Shown: one piece after another, positions 49,147-59,855 of the stretch
How the letters are laid out: every line of letters begins with the position of its first letter
How positions within the stretch are numbered: the stretch's first letter is position 1
From: Treponemataceae bacterium
GTDB taxonomy: Bacteria > Spirochaetota > Spirochaetia > Treponematales > Rectinemataceae
Reading direction: 5' to 3'
DNA length: 64,000 bases
NCBI GenBank assembly: GCA_963667725.2
Contig: CAXXHO010000005.1
Location: 576,001 to 640,000, forward strand
The notes under the pieces: model-generated
Seen by the model: only the letters and a program-made list of their open reading frames with translations
Told to the model about the DNA's origin: nothing
Database searches by the model: none
Made by a program: the position numbers and the translations under genes

Positions 49147-49222
49147 ATGCTTCCTTATTTCTTCCGCCTCGTTCACGGCCAGAAGAGGAGTACCGAATAT
49201 GGCCGTAAACGAGGCGATAGGT

Positions 49223-50518
49223 TTAGACCGACGCGAGCCCAAGCTGCAGGTCATCGATGATGTCCCCGACATTCTCGATGCCGATGGACAGGCGCACCAG
49301 GTCGGGCGTCACGCCCGAGTCGATTTGCTGCTCGTCGGTGAGCTGCGAGTGGGTCGTGCTTCCCGGGTGGATCGCAAGGCTCTTGGCGTCGCCGACGTTC
49401 GCCAGGTGCGAAAAGAGCTTGAGCGATTCGATGAACTTCTGGCCCGCCGGCCTTCCTCCCTTTACGCCAAACACGACCATGCCGCCCGCTCCCTTCGGCA
49501 GGAGTTTTTGGGCGAGCGCGTAGGAGGCGTCGCCCTCGAGGCCGGGATAGCGCACCCAGGCGACCTTGGGGTGGTTCTTGAGGAATTTCGCGACGGCGAG
49601 GGCGTTCTCGACGTGCCTCGGCATGCGGACATGGAGGGTTTCGATGCCCTGGAGGAAGATCCAGGCGTTGTCCGGCGAAAGGCAGGCGCCGAGGTTGCGC
49701 AGGGGCACCGTCCTGAAGCGCAGCGCGAAGGCGATCTTCCTGAGTTCCGGAGGAAGGTCGATGGCCCAGCGGAGACCGTGGTAGTTCTTGTCGGGGCTGT
49801 TGAAGAGGGTGAACTTGGGGTCGGACCAGTCGAAGGTACCAGCGTCCGTCGCTATGCCGCCTATCGCCGTGCCGTGTCCGCCCAGCCATTTGGTGAGGGA
49901 GTTGATGACGATGTCGGCGCCGTGTTCGATGGTCTTCAATAGATAGGGCGTGGTGAAGGTGGCGTCCACGACCAGGGGCAGATGATGCTTTTTCGCGATC
50001 GCCGATATGGCGTCGATGTCCGCGAGGTCGAGCACGGGATTGCCTATCGTCTCGATATAGAGAAGCCGGGTTTTTCCGTTGATAGCCGCCTCGAAGGAGG
50101 CGGGTTCGAGGACATTCGCGAACCTTGTGACGATCCCCAGGTCGGGGAGGATGGCGTCGAACATGGTGTAGGTGCCGCCGTAGAGATTGGTGGCAGACAC
50201 TATTTCGTCGCCCGCTTTCGCGATGGTAACGACCGTGTTGAAGATAGCCGCGGTGCCCGAGGCGACCGCCACCGAAGCGGCGCCGCCCTCAAGCTGACTC
50301 ACCCTCGCCTCGAGGACATCGTTGGTAGGATTGCCCATTCGTGAATAGATGTTTCCCGACTCCTTGAGTCCAAAGAGGTTGGCCGCGTGTTCGGCGCTCT
50401 TGAAGACGAAGGAAGAAGTCCGGTAGACGGGAACGCCACGAGAGAGGGTTGTCGGGTCGGGGCTATGTCCGGCTTGGACGGCTATCGTTTCGAAAGAAGG
50501 TTTTCTGTTTTCGGCCAT
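49223..50518 (-). CDS. metY: O-acetylhomoserine sulfhydrylase
   Basis: YSRMGNPT, LYGGT, SLTKWLGGHG (PLP Lys), HLANVGDAKSLAIHP, VRLSIGIE. Confidence 0.93.
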   Translation of the reverse strand: MAENRKPSFETIAVQAGHSPDPTTLSRGVPVYRTSSFVFKSAEHAANLFGLKESGNIYSRMGNPTNDVLEARVSQLEGGAASVAVASGTAAIFNTVVTIAKAGDEIVSATNLYGGTYTMFDAILPDLGIVTRFANVLEPASFEAAINGKTRLLYIETIGNPVLDLADIDAISAIAKKHHLPLVVDATFTTPYLLKTIEHGADIVINSLTKWLGGHGTAIGGIATDAGTFDWSDPKFTLFNSPDKNYHGLRWAIDLPPELRKIAFALRFRTVPLRNLGACLSPDNAWIFLQGIETLHVRMPRHVENALAVAKFLKNHPKVAWVRYPGLEGDASYALAQKLLPKGAGGMVVFGVKGGRPAGQKFIESLKLFSHLANVGDAKSLAIHPGSTTHSQLTDEQQIDSGVTPDLVRLSIGIENVGDIIDDLQLGLASV

Positions 50519-50685
50519 GGAAGTTTCCTTGCGCGCCGCGAGGGCGCGGGAGAGATCGCGGCGGCCCTTTGGGCCGCCGCCTGGAATATGCCCCGTCCGC
50601 TTCCGGCGTCGCGACGCGCGCCATGAGCCGGTCGGGGCCCTGTCATGCTGCATATCATGCCCAGCCTGCCGTCTCTCTCGCTCAA
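50482..50685 (-). CDS. Putative leader peptide upstream of metY (paralog of the metA leader)
   Basis: TTG start overlapping the metA TGA, GAGGAGG RBS; first 34 codons match the 51677..51781 peptide at 25 positions (counting the initiator); runs out of frame 37 nt into metY. Confidence 0.6.
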
Positions 50686-51620
50686 TGCCTTCCTCCTCGA
50701 GGGAGATTTATCGCCGCGAGATCGTAGGGGGTTTCCTGGTACACGCAGTAGTTGAGCCAGTTGGCGTAGAGAAGGTGGGCGTGGGAGCGCCAGGTAACGA
50801 GAGGCTCGCGCTTCGGGTCGCCGTCAGGGAAATAGTTGACGGGCACCTTTATGGACAGTCCCTTCGCCACGTCGCGGTCATATTCGGCCTTGAGGGTCAG
50901 CCTGTCGTACTCGGGGTGGCCAGTGACGAAGACGCGGCGCCCGTCGCGCGAGGCCGCGAGGTAGACGCCCGCTTCCTCGGAAGTGGCGAGGAGCTTGAGG
51001 TCGGGAACGACAGCGATTTCATCGGCGTCGACCTCGGTGTACCGGGAGTGCGGGGCGTAGAATTCCTCGTCGAAGCCTCTGAGAAGGGGCTCCCTGGCAT
51101 CGAGGGTCCTGTGCCGATAGAGACCGAACATTTTTTCAGGAAGGGGCCGCTTGTCGATGCCGTAGTGGTGGTGCAGCCCCGCCTGGGCTCCCCAGCAGAT
51201 GTGGAGGGTGGACCAGACGTTGGTCGTGGACCAGTCCATGAGGCGGACGAGTTCGGGCCAGTAGTCCACTTCCTCGAAGGGAATGGTCTCGACCGGGGCG
51301 CCGGTGATCACGAGGCCGTCGAAACGTTCCTCAAGGATTTCGTCCAGGGGTTCGTAGAAGGCGTCCAGGTGCTCGATGGGGGTATTGGCCGACTCGTGAG
51401 TCGCCATGCGGATGAAGCGTATGTCAGTCTGGAGCGGCGAATTGCCCAAAAGGCGCAGTATTTGGGTTTCGGTGACTATCTTGGTGGGCATGAGATTGAG
51501 GACGGCGATCCTGAGCTCGCGGATATCCTGGTGGAAGGCGCGCTCCTTCGTCATCACGAAAATGTTTTCTTCTTCGAGTTGTCGCGCGGCGGGAAGATCG
51601 TCTGGAATTCTTACGGGCAT
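50682..51620 (-). CDS. metA: Homoserine O-acyltransferase MetA family, predicted acetyltransferase
   Basis: [14 protein letters not shown] (Glu at the specificity position, as in acetyl-CoA users), ICWGAQA, PHSRY, TGHPEY. Confidence 0.94.
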
Positions 51621-51676
51621 AGGGCCTCCGGTCGCGCCTCCGTGGCGCGAAACGCCGCGGCCTCCCTTGGGGCCGC

Positions 51677-51781
51677 CTAGAAACCGCCCCGTCCGTACCT
51701 TGCGTCGCGACGCGCGCAAGAAGCAGGCCGGGGCTTTTTCATTTCACATATCATACCCACGCGACCGTCTCTTTCGCTCAT
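51677..51781 (-). CDS. Putative 34-aa leader peptide upstream of metA ([34 protein letters not shown])
   Basis: Translated by hand (below the ORF track cutoff); GGAGGA RBS; conserved second copy before metY. Confidence 0.65.
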
Positions 51782-51857
51782 GGACGCTATTCCTCCAATG
51801 GAATGGCCAAGGGGCCGCGATGATCCGCGCTATCCCCAGCCGCTTCAAGATTGTGTT

Positions 51858-51886
51858 ACTATGCATAACCACAAATGAACTGTCAA
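51858..51886 (-). promoter_or_regulatory. Sigma70-type promoter for leader-metA-leader-metY
   Basis: TTGACA-17-CATAGT on minus strand. Confidence 0.7.
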
Positions 51887-51958: not shown

Positions 51959-51987
51959 TTGACCCCTCGACGTTCGCGTGCTAGGAT
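51959..51987 (+). promoter_or_regulatory. Sigma70-type promoter for metF-metH
   Basis: TTGACC-17-TAGGAT with extended TG. Confidence 0.6.
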
Positions 51988-51999
51988 CGGCGAAATCTT

Positions 52000-53040
52000 A
52001 TGAGTGTAAATTCCTATGCCACCGCGAAAAAGCGGAACATTTCCTCCCGTTCGAGCATTCTCGATGCGCTCGCGTTAGGTCGATGCGTATCCATCGAGGT
52101 GGTCCCGCCGCCCCGCGGAGGCGATCTGGAATCGATCATGGCGGCCGTGGAGACCATCGCGCCGCACGATCCCTCCTTCATTTCGGTGACAGACCACCCG
52201 GGCGGGAAGGCCTGGGCCGATTCGACGGATGGGCCGCGGCGGGTAGCCTTGCGGACGAAGCCGGGCACCTTGGGAACTGCCGTGGCGCTGCGGGACGCCT
52301 TCGGTCTGACGACCGTGCCCCACATCGTCGGGGGGATGGCCGACAGGCTCGACGTCGAGGACCTTCTCATAGACCTCCACTACGCCAACTTCCGCGATCT
52401 TTTCGTCGTGATGGGCGACGATCGCTTCACTCCGGCAGGCCAGGCTTCCATACGGAATTCCCCCGCGGGCGGAGGCTCAGGCGAAGAGGGCTACGCCCAC
52501 GCCTCGGACCTCGTGGCGCACATTTCCAGGCTGAACTCGGGCGAATACACGCCGCCGGCAGAGGGCAAGCCCACTGCTTTCACCATGGGCGTCGCCGCCT
52601 ATCCCCAGAAACATTTCGCCGCCCCGAACCTCGAGGCCGATATCGAGCACCTGGCGGAAAAGATAACCGCGGGCGCTAGTTTCGCCATCACGCAGATGGT
52701 CTTCGAGGCAAAGCCTTACATCGAGCTCGTGCGGCGCCTCCGCGAAAGGGGCATCGACGCGCCCGTCCTGCCCGGCATAAAGCCGCTTTTCAAGGCTTCG
52801 AGCCTGGACATGATCCCGCGCACCTTCTTCGTCGACCTCCCGCGGGGATTGGTGAGCGCACTCAGGGAGGCCAGAAGTCCCGAGGAGGAAAAGGCCGCGG
52901 GCATAGCCTGGACGGTAAGACTCTGCCGGGAACTTCTCGACGCCGGGGCTCCCGGCCTGCACTTTTTCACGATGGGGCGCGGCGCCGGAACGCGGTGGAT
53001 ACTCGACGCCCTTTTCGGGCCGAAAGGCGGCGCGTCGTGA
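52000..53040 (+). CDS. metF: Methylenetetrahydrofolate reductase
   Basis: SIEVVPP, FISVT, VPH, GVAAYPQKH, AITQMVF, PGLHFFTM. Confidence 0.88.
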   Translation: MSVNSYATAKKRNISSRSSILDALALGRCVSIEVVPPPRGGDLESIMAAVETIAPHDPSFISVTDHPGGKAWADSTDGPRRVALRTKPGTLGTAVALRDAFGLTTVPHIVGGMADRLDVEDLLIDLHYANFRDLFVVMGDDRFTPAGQASIRNSPAGGGSGEEGYAHASDLVAHISRLNSGEYTPPAEGKPTAFTMGVAAYPQKHFAAPNLEADIEHLAEKITAGASFAITQMVFEAKPYIELVRRLRERGIDAPVLPGIKPLFKASSLDMIPRTFFVDLPRGLVSALREARSPEEEKAAGIAWTVRLCRELLDAGAPGLHFFTMGRGAGTRWILDALFGPKGGAS

Positions 53041-56917: not shown

Positions 56918-57997
56918 CTACAAACCGAAGAGCCGCGAGGCGCCGGCCGCCACAAGCCCCAGGGCGAGCGACGAGACCATAGGCCAGAAACTCCTGTCCA
57001 CTTCCAGGAGGGCTCCCGGCTGGCAGGTGTAGGTCGAAGCTCCCGTGAAGTTCATGGCGAGAAAAGCGACGACCGGCGTCGCGACAAGGATTCCCCCAAC
57101 CGCGGCCAGAACTGGTATATGGAAGATAAAGGCGCATGACAGGGCCCAGGCCGCCCCCAGCGCGGCGCCCTTTACCACGAAAGCCCTCGATGGAAGCCAG
57201 GGAAGCAGTGCAGGGAAAATCATCGTTCCCATCGGAATGCTGCCGAGAAGGAGGATAGCGGCGGGGATCGCCCGCGCCAGCCAGCCCCGCGCGGGAAGGG
57301 CGAAAACGGCGGCCAGCGCCAAGGCCGCGGGAATTATCGGCCAGGAATGGGCAATTTCCACGGGAGCGACGGCCATGCGATCCCGGAAATTGAAGGTGAC
57401 CTTGCTCATGGCGGCGCTCTTGACGCGGCCAGCGGCCAGCCATGCCTGTATGTCAGCGGCGCGCACCGGGCCCCATTCGACGCGGAAGCCGGATTTCTTC
57501 AGCACTTCGGGAGCCGAGACGCCCGGCGCCCCGAGCTGTGGCAGTATGAGGCCGCGATGCGAGACGAGATCGGCCAACTTCACTTTTGCGATCCGCGACA
57601 CAAGCTCCGCCGTCCCGAAGGATCCTTTGCCGGCCGCGCACCAGAGATTGATGCCCTTGGTGTCGAGGACGAGAATCCAGCCGTCCAGCCCCGCGAGATT
57701 CGAGCGAAGCGCGTCGAAACTCAGTTTATAGTTGGCGCTGACGAACACAGGCGAATCTTTGGTCGGATTGCCCACGGCGTAGATGCCCGGCAGAACGCTG
57801 TAGCGCATCCGGCCGACGCCCCATCGCGCCTTGAGCCCGCCCAGCCTGTCGCCTTTGTCCAGGCTCGTCGCCGCGACCGGTATCGTCCTGTCGCCATACA
57901 CCATAAAGCGCTTCACCCAAGACTTCTTGAGCCCTTCCAGGACGACGAATCCCGCCTGGGCCTCGGCCTTCGCGTCGCGTTTCAGAAGCAGGCTCAT
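56918..57997 (-). CDS. hgcA: Mercury methylation corrinoid protein HgcA
   Basis: PGIYAVGNP, SANYKLSFD, LDTKGINLWCAAGKGSFG cap helix, ILPQLGAPGV, WGPVRA, C-terminal TM helices and NFTGASTYT. Confidence 0.92.
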   Translation of the reverse strand: MSLLLKRDAKAEAQAGFVVLEGLKKSWVKRFMVYGDRTIPVAATSLDKGDRLGGLKARWGVGRMRYSVLPGIYAVGNPTKDSPVFVSANYKLSFDALRSNLAGLDGWILVLDTKGINLWCAAGKGSFGTAELVSRIAKVKLADLVSHRGLILPQLGAPGVSAPEVLKKSGFRVEWGPVRAADIQAWLAAGRVKSAAMSKVTFNFRDRMAVAPVEIAHSWPIIPAALALAAVFALPARGWLARAIPAAILLLGSIPMGTMIFPALLPWLPSRAFVVKGAALGAAWALSCAFIFHIPVLAAVGGILVATPVVAFLAMNFTGASTYTCQPGALLEVDRSFWPMVSSLALGLVAAGASRLFGL

Positions 57998-58497
57998 CGT
58001 TCGGTCGCCCCGGATTCCCGGCAGCAGCCACCCGATCCGTTCAAAGCGCCCGATCCCTCCAAGAGCCGCCAGGCTCGCATGGTCTTGGCGAACAAAGGGA
58101 GCGCGGCCATAAGCATATTTTTTTCGCCCGCAGGAAGCGACGCGAGGAGTCCATCATAATAGCGGTCGCAGAGATTATTGATAGAATCGGCCTTCTCCCG
58201 CCCTAAAACGGTGAGGCGGACAAGCTGGCGCCTGCGGTTGTCGGGATCTTCCCTTCTCTCCAGAATTCCCGCCCTGACAAGACCGTCAACCGTGCGGGAA
58301 AGCGTTGAGGAATCGAGCTCGAGGACGGCGGCCAGGGCCCCGACGCTGGCCTCCCCCGCCTCTTCCACCGCGAGCAGCAGGTGGCACTGCGCCGGCGTCA
58401 CGCCGCAGCATTCGGTCTGGGCGACGAGGGCAAGCTCCACCTGGCGCTCAAGCGCCCTGAGTCCTTTGCGAAAACTGCGGATTGAAGAATCGGCCAT
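57994..58497 (-). CDS. Cys-rich MarR-family regulator
   Basis: ECCGVTPAQCH, LDSSTLSRTVDGLV, EDPDNRR, LTVLG; stop overlaps hgcA start (ATGA). Confidence 0.9.
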   Translation of the reverse strand: MADSSIRSFRKGLRALERQVELALVAQTECCGVTPAQCHLLLAVEEAGEASVGALAAVLELDSSTLSRTVDGLVRAGILERREDPDNRRRQLVRLTVLGREKADSINNLCDRYYDGLLASLPAGEKNMLMAALPLFAKTMRAWRLLEGSGALNGSGGCCRESGATER

Positions 58498-58628: not shown

Positions 58629-58659
58629 TTGACAGCGTAATACCACATTGTGGTATATT
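58629..58659 (+). promoter_or_regulatory. cysK-region promoter with 8-1-8 inverted repeat
   Basis: TTGACA at 58629, TGnTATATT at 58651..58659 (19-nt spacer); ATACCACA-T-TGTGGTAT at 58640..58656. Confidence 0.6.
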
Positions 58660-58892
58660 ATTGATAATGAAGGTAAACACCGACCACTATATACCGGAGG
58701 TAGCGGAGGGGCGTCAGTCCCTCCATGCGTGTCTCCTATCCCGCGCCCTCCCCGCCTGAAATGACGGCGCCGTCGAGGCGCGACCCCAGATCATCAGAAG
58801 CTCATTTTCATAATCGCCCGGACTACATCATCCGAACTACATCATCCGAACACGACACCGCGCATAAAAAGCAGGCGCGAAAGGAACATGAA

Positions 58893-59855
58893 ATGTCATA
58901 CGCGAAAAGCATAACCGACCTCATAGGAAACACGCCCCTCGTCCAAATAAAGGCACCCGACGCAGCGCCAAGGGCAAAGCCCTTGGCGATCGTCCTCGCC
59001 AAGCTCGAGTCCTTCAATCCCTTCTCGAGCATCAAAGACCGCATAGGCCTGGCCATGATCGAGGACGCCGAACACCGCGGCGCGCTCAAGAAGGGAAACA
59101 TCATCGTCGAACCCACCTCGGGCAACACCGGCGTGGCCCTCGCCGCCGTGGCGGCGGCCAAGGGCTACCGCATCATCCTCACGATGCCCGACACCATGAG
59201 CGTCGAGCGGCGCAAGCTTCTCGCGGCCTACGGGGCCGAGCTCGTCCTCACCGAGGGAGCCAAGGGCATGAAGGGCGCCATAGCGAAGGCGAAGGAAATC
59301 GCCGAATCCACCCCGGGCAGCTTCATACCCAGCCAATTCGACAACCCGGCCAACCCGAAGATACACCGCGAAACGACGGCCGAGGAGATCTGGCGCGACA
59401 CCGAGGGGAAGGTGGACATCGTGGTGGCTGGCGTGGGCACGGGCGGGACGATCACCGGCGTCGCCTCGGCGCTCAAGCCGCGAAAACCGGGGTTCGAGGC
59501 CATCGCCGTGGAGCCGGCCGCCTCACCCGTCCTCTCGGGCGGCCAACCCGGCCCCCACAAAATTCAGGGCATAGGCGCAGGCTTTATCCCCGGAGTCTAC
59601 GACCCGAAGCTCATCGACGAAATCATACAGGTGAAACACGAGGACGCCGGCTTGGTCGCGCGCGACCTGGCTAGGCATGAGGGAATCTTCGCGGGAATTT
59701 CGTCCGGAGCGGCGCTCTGGGCAGCCCTGCGGGTAGCGGCGCGCCCGGAAAACGCGGGCAAGGTCATCGTCGTCATCTTCCCCGATACGGGCGAGCGCTA
59801 CCTCTCCACCTGGCTCTTCGAGGAACCGGCGCCCGCAGACGTGAACGTAAAATAA
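58893..59855 (+). CDS. cysK: Cysteine synthase A
   Basis: [55 protein letters not shown]. Confidence 0.96.

Follow-up and report, generated by a model that had tools for sequence, protein, structure and literature searches.

A leader reading frame with Met and Cys codons and an embedded hairpin precedes metA and metY in two families of Spirochaetota and may act as a ribosome-mediated attenuator

Control of methionine genes is usually ascribed to MetJ/MetR-type proteins, S-adenosylmethionine (SAM) riboswitches or T-boxes, and methionine is, to our knowledge, among the few amino acids without a textbook case of ribosome-mediated attenuation. Here we describe a family of short leader open reading frames (ORFs), each running through a GC-clamped hairpin, that lie in front of metA and metY in a stretch of 64,000 nucleotides (nt) from a Treponemataceae bacterium of the phylum Spirochaetota (contig CAXXHO010000005.1 of assembly GCA_963667725.2, positions 576,001 to 640,000; hereafter the window) and in its relatives. 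Leader peptides of methionine genes have, as a kind, already been proposed; what is new here is the element family and its layout.

The closest described system is in Campylobacter jejuni, where MetL, a leader peptide of 20 amino acids with three Met codons, has been proposed in front of metBA (cj1727c-1726c) and where the short RNA is said to end just past the leader stop (PMC3847290). In a second C. jejuni study, start-site profiling peaks were reported for MetL, as was another Met-rich upstream ORF (MMYQMR) before a methionine transporter gene (bioRxiv 10.1101/2022.11.09.515450). MetL shares with the spirochete leader a short ORF with Met codons upstream of a sulfhydrylase and homoserine acyltransferase pair, for which coupling to charged tRNA is proposed. 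The spirochete leader differs in having about 34 codons that continue through a 49-nt GC-clamped hairpin, in lacking a terminator, in conserving Cys (or Trp) beside Met and in its occurrence in Spirochaetota. In Streptomyces lividans TK24, a Cys/Met-rich leader, metL (MSTTSDRTPATEATTTPGARCMCRRMCAF), precedes metNIQ and is followed by hairpins, a typical Rho-independent terminator being missing (PMC8079986). This metL resembles the spirochete leader in having Cys and Met alternate in a cluster (CMCRRMC, towards the end of its 29 amino acids) and in the downstream hairpins without a typical terminator, but it is leaderless, lies upstream of a transporter, carries its cluster at the C-terminus and has no evident sequence relation to the spirochete element; it, too, is a prediction. 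A 5' untranslated region controlling met genes has also been reported in Xanthomonas (PMC6230763). The present family, its hairpin-embedded ORF and its taxon are not described in the available text of the Campylobacter, Streptomyces or Xanthomonas reports, and it corresponds to no Rfam family. The initial annotation of this DNA, which had taken the leaders for an undescribed attenuator, thus holds for the element family but not for the kind, since leader peptides of this sort had been proposed in C. jejuni and S. lividans.

The window sequence between 50482 and 51800 (coordinates are those of the window, and features lie on its minus strand, unless stated otherwise) reads as had been annotated. 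It covers metA, encoding homoserine O-acetyltransferase (50682..51620; NF047918, 3.7e-145, above the curated cut-off), and the beginning of metY, encoding O-acetylhomoserine sulfhydrylase (49223..50518; TIGR01326, 1e-177, above the cut-off). Each gene is preceded by a leader with a GGAGG ribosome-binding site (RBS), in agreement with the initial annotation, and the two leaders align without gaps over the peptide region (75% identity, query positions 21-137, E = 2.1e-15 in a within-genome BLAST search), as expected of the homologous copies that had been proposed. When the TTG start of the metY copy is read as Met, 25 of 34 residues are identical, and all eight synonymous codon differences that had been pointed out are present in the codon table of the copies. 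The Met-Ile-Cys-x-Met cluster at codons 10-14 is likewise found in both and belongs to a family core Met-x-Cys-x-Met. What had been missed is a 49-nt hairpin, H1, made up of codons 17-32 in each ORF; it is the site of nucleotide invariance and is followed by a second hairpin, H2.

The metA leader ORF (51677..51781) begins with ATG 10 nt downstream of its GGAGG (51792..51796) and comprises 34 codons and a TAG stop, with both frame and stop position conserved among the copies; it ends 56 nt upstream of metA. Its putative sensor codons, defined from the alignment of copies, are Met10-Ile11-Cys12-Glu13-Met14 (51740..51754), with in-frame AUGs at 51754-51752 and 51742-51740, an out-of-frame AUG at 51749-51747 and a 5-nt spacer to the hairpin. 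H1 (51686..51734, from folding and covariation) is 49 nt long, lies within the ORF and is closed by a GC clamp in which GCCCCG (51734-51729) pairs with CGGGGC (51691-51686). Folding places H2 (GGCGGCCCC AAG GGAGGCCGC; 51657..51677) directly 3' of the leader stop, with no U run, and a third hairpin, H3 (CGCGCC ACGGA GGCGCG; 51633..51649), which is present in some lineages only. The ribosome-binding region of metA (GGAGGCCCUAUG; 51618..51629) contains a GCCCU tract that is complementary to the 3' arm of H1, as judged from sequence and duplex energy. Upstream, a promoter-like site for the metA leader transcript, TTGACA-17 nt-CATAGT (51858..51886), is identified by consensus match only; it agrees with the consensus at 10 of 12 positions and is the best of 7 sites in 10 kb, where shuffled sequences lead one to expect 2.6.

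In the metY copy, the GGAGG (50692..50696) is located within the 3' end of metA, 6 nt upstream of a TTG start (50685-50683) that overlaps the metA stop TGA (50684-50682) in the sequence TTGA. The metY leader would therefore constitute an internal control point of a metA-metY operon. Its putative sensor codons are Met10-Ile11-Cys12-Ser13-Met14 (50644..50658, from the alignment), H1 occupies 50590..50638 (folding and covariation; clamp 50638-50633 with 50595-50590), H2 (GGCGGCGGCCC AAA GGGCCGCCGC; 50558..50581) has a folding energy of -22.8 kcal/mol, and H3 is predicted at 50532..50548. Because the TAG codon of the metA copy is CAG here, the metY leader ORF stays open to 50482 (50482..50685; 67 codons, from the sequence and the ORF list), overrunning the metY start in another frame, and the trailing Gln with which the initial annotation had left this peptide open was correct.

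In order to define the distribution of the element, relatives were gathered by BLAST and an exact-pattern scan with one genome per species, which gave 13 and then 18 distinct copies. The exact-pattern scan produced 17 loci, 14 of them labelled as spirochetes, two labelled only 'bacterium' and one labelled Sphingomonadales (L041); the last was rejected as a chance match, as it has neither the AUG motif nor the expected context. R1, a covariance model of the element core built from the aligned copies, matched 18 of 68 other genomes of the window's family (f1); MetY is present in 38 of the 68. When a sample of the order was searched, matches were obtained in 11 of 36 genomes of this family and in 7 of 36 of a sister family (f6) of Spirochaetota, with no match in 78 genomes of four other families of the order and none in 150 genomes sampled across the phylum. 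By these searches, the element occurs in just two families, both of the same order. Thirty-one distinct copies, to which the counts below refer, were kept after removal of duplicates, reverse-strand echoes and a weak match (L060; 27 bits, 49% GC) that is excluded from all counts.

Judged by the N-terminus of the next ORF, the gene 3' of these copies is metA in 11 cases, metY in 19 and a cystine-type transporter gene in one. The last of these is a third copy in a genome of the window's genus (L030:987-1096, minus strand), and it precedes a periplasmic binding protein gene (L030:83-910, minus strand) whose product has its best match, at 2.2e-42 and below the family cut-off, to a cystine ABC transporter family. 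The presence of a leader copy before this gene suggests that the regulon extends beyond metA and metY. Only two copies, those before metA and metY, were found by BLAST in the whole 4.2-Mb assembly of the source genome, and, with 30 of 31 copies preceding metA or metY, a dispersed repeat is ruled out. The frame, the start and the Met14 and Cys12 codons are retained in the homologues. A profile search of 1.84 billion protein representatives returned six matches: P0003 and P0005 were called as leader peptides belonging to this family, P0004 joins leader and metA in one run-on call, P0006 is a run-on ORF, and P0001 and P0002 each contain nine separate matching stretches; nothing outside the leader family was recognised in this search, in which P0001 and P0002 were not inspected.

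Like SAM riboswitches (SAM-I to SAM-VI, SAM/SAH, the latter also binding S-adenosylhomocysteine, SAH) and Met T-boxes, the element occupies a place in met operons where a feedback role is presumed; unlike these, it is translated and matches no Rfam model. Rfam searches gave no match in the whole 64-kb window at the gathering score and none at the metY loci of 13 relatives, and a search of the leader region at E values up to 10 gave six weak, unrelated matches, none of them to a SAM, SAH or T-box family, in keeping with the failure of the initial annotation to recognise a known met RNA.

The position of starts and stops, the substitution pattern and the codon bias all support the conclusion that the leader ORF is read as protein. 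The adopted start (ATG, GTG or TTG) lies exactly 47 nt 5' of H1 in 27 of 31 copies, and a start with a Shine-Dalgarno (SD)-like word upstream falls at that distance in 18; in the remaining copies the start is nearer to H1 (e.g. MVCSM, with GGAGG 9-10 nt upstream) or slightly further up. Taking frame 0 as the frame that reads the clamp as Pro-Arg, 25 of 31 copies have a stop codon between -9 and +6 nt from the H1 3' end, compared with 1 of 31 for each of the other frames. Three further copies have the frame-0 stop at +18 or +24, and it has been lost in three, including the window's metY copy. The stop may be TAG, TAA or TGA, and it keeps its codon position in copies whose distance to H2 is altered by 1-3 nt. 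Among the 19 copies, drawn from both families, that have the N-terminus Ser-Glu-Arg-Asp-Gly-Arg-Gln-Gly, entropy at the first, second and third positions of codons 2-9 is 0.46, 0.41 and 1.22, and arginine codons switch between AGA, AGG and CGN within this segment. The proposal that selection acts on the peptide is thus borne out for codons 2-9, where variation is concentrated at third positions.

A strong bias towards Met and Cys codons is confined to one frame. From the start to codon 16, the 31 copies contain 80 in-frame ATGs, compared with 4 in frame +1 and 31 in frame +2, the latter corresponding to one invariant AUG per copy. Met makes up 17.0% and Cys 5.5% of the 470 leader codons, as against 2.1% and 1.0%, respectively, in the long ORFs of the genome, and divergent copies have gained Met codons at new in-frame positions (MLCDMMMPR; MMM; MRERMWTMTMVWSMRM; MRERMWTMTMVWSMRMP). 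The conserved core, NNA-UG(Y/G)-NNN-AUG, encodes x-Cys/Trp-x-Met and ends exactly 5 nt 5' of H1; Met14, the out-of-frame AUG and the 5-nt spacer between AUG and clamp are each found in 31 of 31 copies. The out-of-frame AUG between the sensor codons (51747-51749 and 50651-50653 in the window) is invariant because codon 11 ends in A in every copy (AUA, CUA, UUA, GUA, CAA, CCA or UCA), NNA codons being rare in this GC-rich genome. Further on, Pro17 is invariant and Arg18 nearly so. A candidate -1 frameshift site, A AAA AAG, is found only in the window's metA copy and was rejected as not conserved.

H1 is a single imperfect hairpin of 48-50 nt and 16-20 bp, extending from GCCCCG to CGGGGC, in 31 of 31 copies. 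Its mid-stem varies yet stays paired (CUGUCCAC/GUGGACAG, CCGGUCC/GGACCGG, GCUCUCC/GGGAGC). In the 31-row alignment, 87.7% of cells are paired, compared with 36-48% after a shift of the 3' partner by 1-3 columns, and the covariation score is 0.196, which 0 of 500 shuffles reach, compared with 0.06-0.09 for the shifted alignments. The clamp covaries as well, an inner pair changing from G-C to C-G or U-A and another from C-G to U-A. Covariation thus supports H1 as a real RNA structure. Over codons 17-32, which form H1, entropy by codon position is 0.75, 0.68 and 0.71, with no periodicity, and changes in the loop of the apex, CGC-GUN-GCG, yield non-synonymous substitutions of Arg by Cys or Ser. 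Given this lack of periodicity and the invariance at the covarying apex, the second half of what had been regarded as peptide homology appears to be RNA homology. Selection on the peptide, therefore, does not extend to codons 17-32, which are conserved at the RNA level, and the 'RRD' or 'ARRD' motif of the initial annotation is better explained as the apex of H1; the inner part of the hairpin is absent from the short variants described below.

A strong hairpin, H2, begins no more than 18 nt from H1 in 31 of 31 copies. Its stems differ widely, an apex of the form C-AA(A/G)-G was flagged in 20 copies, and three W-type copies of one genus, together with the mini variants, have other downstream structures. 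No U run follows H2 or H3 in the window leaders, and a terminator scan of 10 kb gave 8 sites, where 10.5 were expected, with none located within the leaders. Two further structures, judged by eye from the alignments, were rejected because they occur in few copies only: a small hairpin between the second and third AUG, and a pseudoknot-type pairing of the AUG strand with sequence 3' of H1 or with the H1 loops. Beyond the 3' end of metY, a long hairpin with arms of about 16 bp and a 20-nt loop (49170-49225) lies between the convergent ends of metY and a plus-strand gene; it has no clear U run on either strand, raising the possibility that terminators in the source organism are atypical.

A mini form of the leader was detected in five genomes of the family that have metY but no full R1 match. 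It consists of an SD sequence and start, NNA-UGY-NNN-AUG-N5-GCCCCGC, a loop of 5-6 nt and GCGGGGC, giving a 7-bp clamp. A loose pattern scan of metagenomes yielded at least 120 stretches; among the 80 loci listed were four more mini variants (L113, L118, L133 and L137), the only ones of those listed that are followed by metY, the rest being treated as chance matches to the loose pattern. Mini and other leader variants stand 5' of metY at L095, L096, L097, L099, L100 and L090. The mini variants have no Met10, no SERDGRQG N-terminus and none of the inner hairpin, and several carry extra Cys codons (CCLCGM, FCVCGM). The ends of the variant ORFs differ, lying within the hairpin, after it or, in several, at or beyond the metY start, and one W-type variant stops three codons into H1 (MSVWSMGKPRQ*). 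By these comparisons, the invariant kernel of the family consists of x(NNA)-Cys/Trp-x-Met, followed by a spacer of 5 nt and then by a GC clamp, the 5' arm of which is read as Pro-Arg.

Sequence comparison thus indicates a real, conserved and translated cis-regulatory element of methionine genes. Given its association with metA, metY and a transporter gene, the frame-specific excess of Met and Cys codons, and the placing of these codons before a hairpin that the same ribosome would have to open, we consider it moderately probable that each element works as a ribosome-mediated (leader-peptide) attenuator, signalling the supply of charged Met-tRNA, and probably of Cys-tRNA, to the methionine genes 3' of it. 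Ribosome stalling at Met/Cys codons, which the initial annotation had put forward, is accordingly the reading best supported by the codon bias, the conserved frame and the gene association. As to the direction of control and the stage at which the output is set, we infer the following. The short SD-led ORF would be translated, and its Met/Cys core would be read directly before H1. Since the codons after the core (x-x-Pro-Arg) are themselves the 5' arm of the clamp, the ribosome would have to open H1 to proceed. In the ribosome, some 11 nt separate the helicase site from the first P-site base, and structures that stimulate frameshifting stand 5-9 nt after the A-site codon. A ribosome awaiting Met-tRNA at codon 14, or Cys-tRNA at codon 12, would abut an H1 that is still closed, and one or two codons past Met14 the clamp would have to open. 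Closed H1 would lock away its 3' arm, CGGGGC, and leave the gene on, whereas ribosomes running into H1 would free this arm to pair with the C-rich tract at the metA or metY RBS and so reduce initiation. In the window's genus, the freed 3' arm of H1 may alternatively act through H2 as a relay to the RBS; as for the window's metY copy, the loss of its stop would let leader ribosomes overrun the metY start itself. With Met or Cys in short supply, ribosomes would be kept waiting before H1, and the genes would be on.

Duplex energies are consistent with such pairing. The duplex between the H1 3' arm and the RBS has a mean of -10.0 kcal/mol, compared with -6.1 for 1628 RBS windows of the genome, and reaches -10 kcal/mol or lower in 48% of copies as against 9.8% of controls, a comparison that is confounded by GC content (0.62 versus 0.52) and by the kinship of the copies. 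In most copies of the window's family, the C tract follows the SD (GGAGGCCCC/GGAGGCCUC), whereas in the sister family and some other copies it mostly stands before the SD (CCCGGAGG); in the source genome, CC directly follows GGAGG in only 55 of 697 genes. When the window's metA copy is folded without the 5' arm of H1, CGGGGC pairs with the 5' arm of H2, and the freed 3' arm of H2 (GAGGCC) pairs with the metA RBS region. Masking of the 5' half of H1 lowered mean modelled RBS accessibility from 0.49 to 0.42, with a drop of more than 0.1 in 12 of 31 copies and a rise of more than 0.1 in 2 of 31.

The confounding of the duplex comparison weighs against an attenuator of this kind, and so do several other observations. 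The masking effect is nil in the window copies (modelled RBS accessibility 0.35 to 0.35 for metA and 0.56 to 0.60 for metY), and opening of the RBS by a ribosome stalled at Met14 or at the stop had to be rejected, as two masking schemes gave no consistent change. There is no canonical terminator, H2 being without a U run. Several copies have Met codons at positions 15-16, where a stall would open the clamp, the opposite of a stall at Met14, and the run-on mini and read-through ORFs that reach the metY start could couple translation positively, contrary to what feedback would require. In some mini variants the sensor is reduced to a single Cys and a single Met codon. Finally, the nucleotide-level conservation of the out-of-frame AUG and, in full-length copies, of the apex GCGCGCGUCGCGACGC is unexplained by codon sensing, and a pure codon counter would not require an N-terminus as conserved as SERDGRQG.

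Other explanations have therefore to be weighed against ribosome-position control of the RBS. The spirochete leader resembles the classical attenuators trpL, hisL, pheL, leuL and thrL in being an SD-led mini-ORF rich in codons for the end product, overlapping hairpins and lying 5' of biosynthetic genes. The same Met/Cys sensor could work by trp-type transcription attenuation, with H1 as the 1:2 hairpin and H2 as the 3:4 terminator, such that a stalled ribosome frees the 3' arm of H1 to form a 2:3 pairing with the 5' arm of H2 and termination is avoided. H2 does stand directly after the ORF in 31 of 31 copies, and within the window's genus the 5' arm of H2 offers a GCCCC to which CGGGGC can pair; this pairing forms part of the minimum-energy structure of L026 and of the window's metA copy once the 5' arm of H1 is removed. 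This complementarity is not conserved, however: the 5' arm in L025 (GGCGACCGCC) has no GCCCC, and the metY copies offer only 4 bp. The missing U tract after H2 speaks against termination as well, although no U run is seen at the hairpin behind metY either and terminators here may be atypical; the report on S. lividans metL likewise describes hairpins without a typical terminator (PMC8079986). In addition, the structures downstream are different ones in the mini variants and in the three W-type copies from a single genus, and the conserved Cys12 and Met14 codons precede region 1 rather than lying on it. In trpL-type attenuators the regulatory codons lie on the first hairpin arm, whereas here they precede it and the ORF spans the whole hairpin, and the spirochete leader has neither a hairpin-plus-U-run terminator nor, as far as was found, a conserved 2:3 antiterminator. 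We regard transcription attenuation as unlikely.

A distinctly unlikely alternative is that the leader is an arrest peptide, in which Met or SAM in the exit tunnel stalls the nascent chain SERDGRQGM-L-C-G-M-x-x-P-R-P on the 5' arm of H1, and the freed 3' arm blocks the metA or metY RBS; feedback would then be direct, without sensing of tRNA. Nascent-peptide arrest at PRP, the alternative named in the initial annotation, is a conceivable form of it. TnaC, SpeFL and plant CGS1 are precedents that act by ligand-dependent arrest. Such a mechanism would account for the conservation of eight N-terminal residues across two families in the face of near-saturated synonymous change, which a codon counter does not need, and the complementarity of the freed arm to the RBS gives the right direction of control (high Met, genes off). 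Pro17 is invariant and Arg18 nearly so, but Pro-Arg is forced by the GCCCCG clamp and is thus not independent evidence. Moreover, W-type and mini variants have no SERDGRQG yet retain the element, extra Met and Cys codons at variable positions suit codon sensing better, and no arrest motif of a known family was identified. Still less credible, in our view, is an RNA-only unit, whether a SAM or Met riboswitch or a protein-binding site, formed by the AUG-rich single strand and H1, with the ORF incidental or accessory. Methionine genes are often under riboswitch control, H1 is backed by covariation, and invariance at the nucleotide level, seen in the out-of-frame AUG (codon 11 NNA in 31 of 31 copies), in the apex including its synonymous sites and in the spacing, would be expected of an RNA; the coding signature of codons 2-9, the stop in 25 of 31 versus 1 of 31 copies, the SD-led starts and the 80 versus 4 ATGs, on the other hand, point to translation. 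The mini variants, having no apex but only a 7-bp clamp and a 5-6-nt loop, leave little for a ligand pocket, and no SAM, SAH or T-box family was matched at E values up to 10.

Comparison with translational attenuation of the ermC and secM-secA type bears on the logic of the switch. In those systems, as proposed for the spirochete leader, pairing of the RBS and exposure of one or the other hairpin arm depend on where the ribosome stands on the leader ORF; there the stalled ribosome opens a hairpin and frees the RBS, whereas here the arm that would be freed is complementary to the RBS, so that the logic would be inverted. It is conceivable, if doubtful, that the element as a whole inverts the logic of textbook attenuators, possibly by way of the nascent peptide: with the clamp closed the gene would be on, and ribosomes that enter H1, or that are arrested by Met or SAM sensed through the SERDGRQGMLCGM chain, would release the 3' arm and silence the RBS. 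If true, bacteria would here have a translational feedback switch for methionine that works without terminator or riboswitch, and the arrest form would be the first bacterial counterpart of the SAM-sensing plant peptide CGS1.

Other features of the locus are as follows. Divergent from metA is a methylenetetrahydrofolate reductase gene (52000-53040, plus strand; family-model match), which is faced by a promoter-like TTGACC-17-TAGGAT with an upstream TG (51959-51987, plus strand); no leader copy was found before this gene in the within-genome BLAST search, the assembly having two copies only. Further along are cysK (58725-59855, plus strand; TIGR01139, 1.2e-136), a gene for HgcA, the mercury-methylation corrinoid protein (56918-57997; NF040863, 3.6e-114, above the cut-off), and an ORF for a MarR-like regulator (57994-58497; family-model match). 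In the cysK open frame, some 55-60 N-terminal residues (58725-58900, plus strand) fall outside the model match, which begins at residue 55-63. A palindrome, TACCAC-N3-GTGGTA, overlaps a -10-like GTGGTATAAT at 58640-58660 (plus strand). In the source genome it is located between TTGACA and cysK and occurs twice more just outside the window, and it is not present at the metA promoter; in most relatives it stands shortly 5' of the leader RBS at metY and metA (e.g. L010:2796, L012:1443 on the minus strand, L014:1745, L024:1436 on the minus strand, L088:1386, L094:1302, L097:1309, L100:1318/1334 and L102:1377/1392). We consider the palindrome a candidate operator for a transcription factor of a Cys/Met regulon. 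In that case, control at the promoter and control at the leader would be combined.

With covariation, a coding signature and 31 copies behind them, the spirochete leaders provide a well-supported comparative case in a phylum for which few RNA regulators are known. Together with the proposals made for Campylobacter and Streptomyces, they suggest that Met/Cys leader peptides before metY and metA are widespread but uncatalogued. The layout, in which sensor codons stand 5 nt from a clamp, translation of the ORF would have to open that clamp, an arm is complementary to the RBS and no terminator is present, offers a compact and directly testable system for studying how the position of a ribosome is turned into control of a gene. 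The element is suited to be described as a new cis-regulatory family, which would improve the annotation of met regulons in free-living spirochetes.

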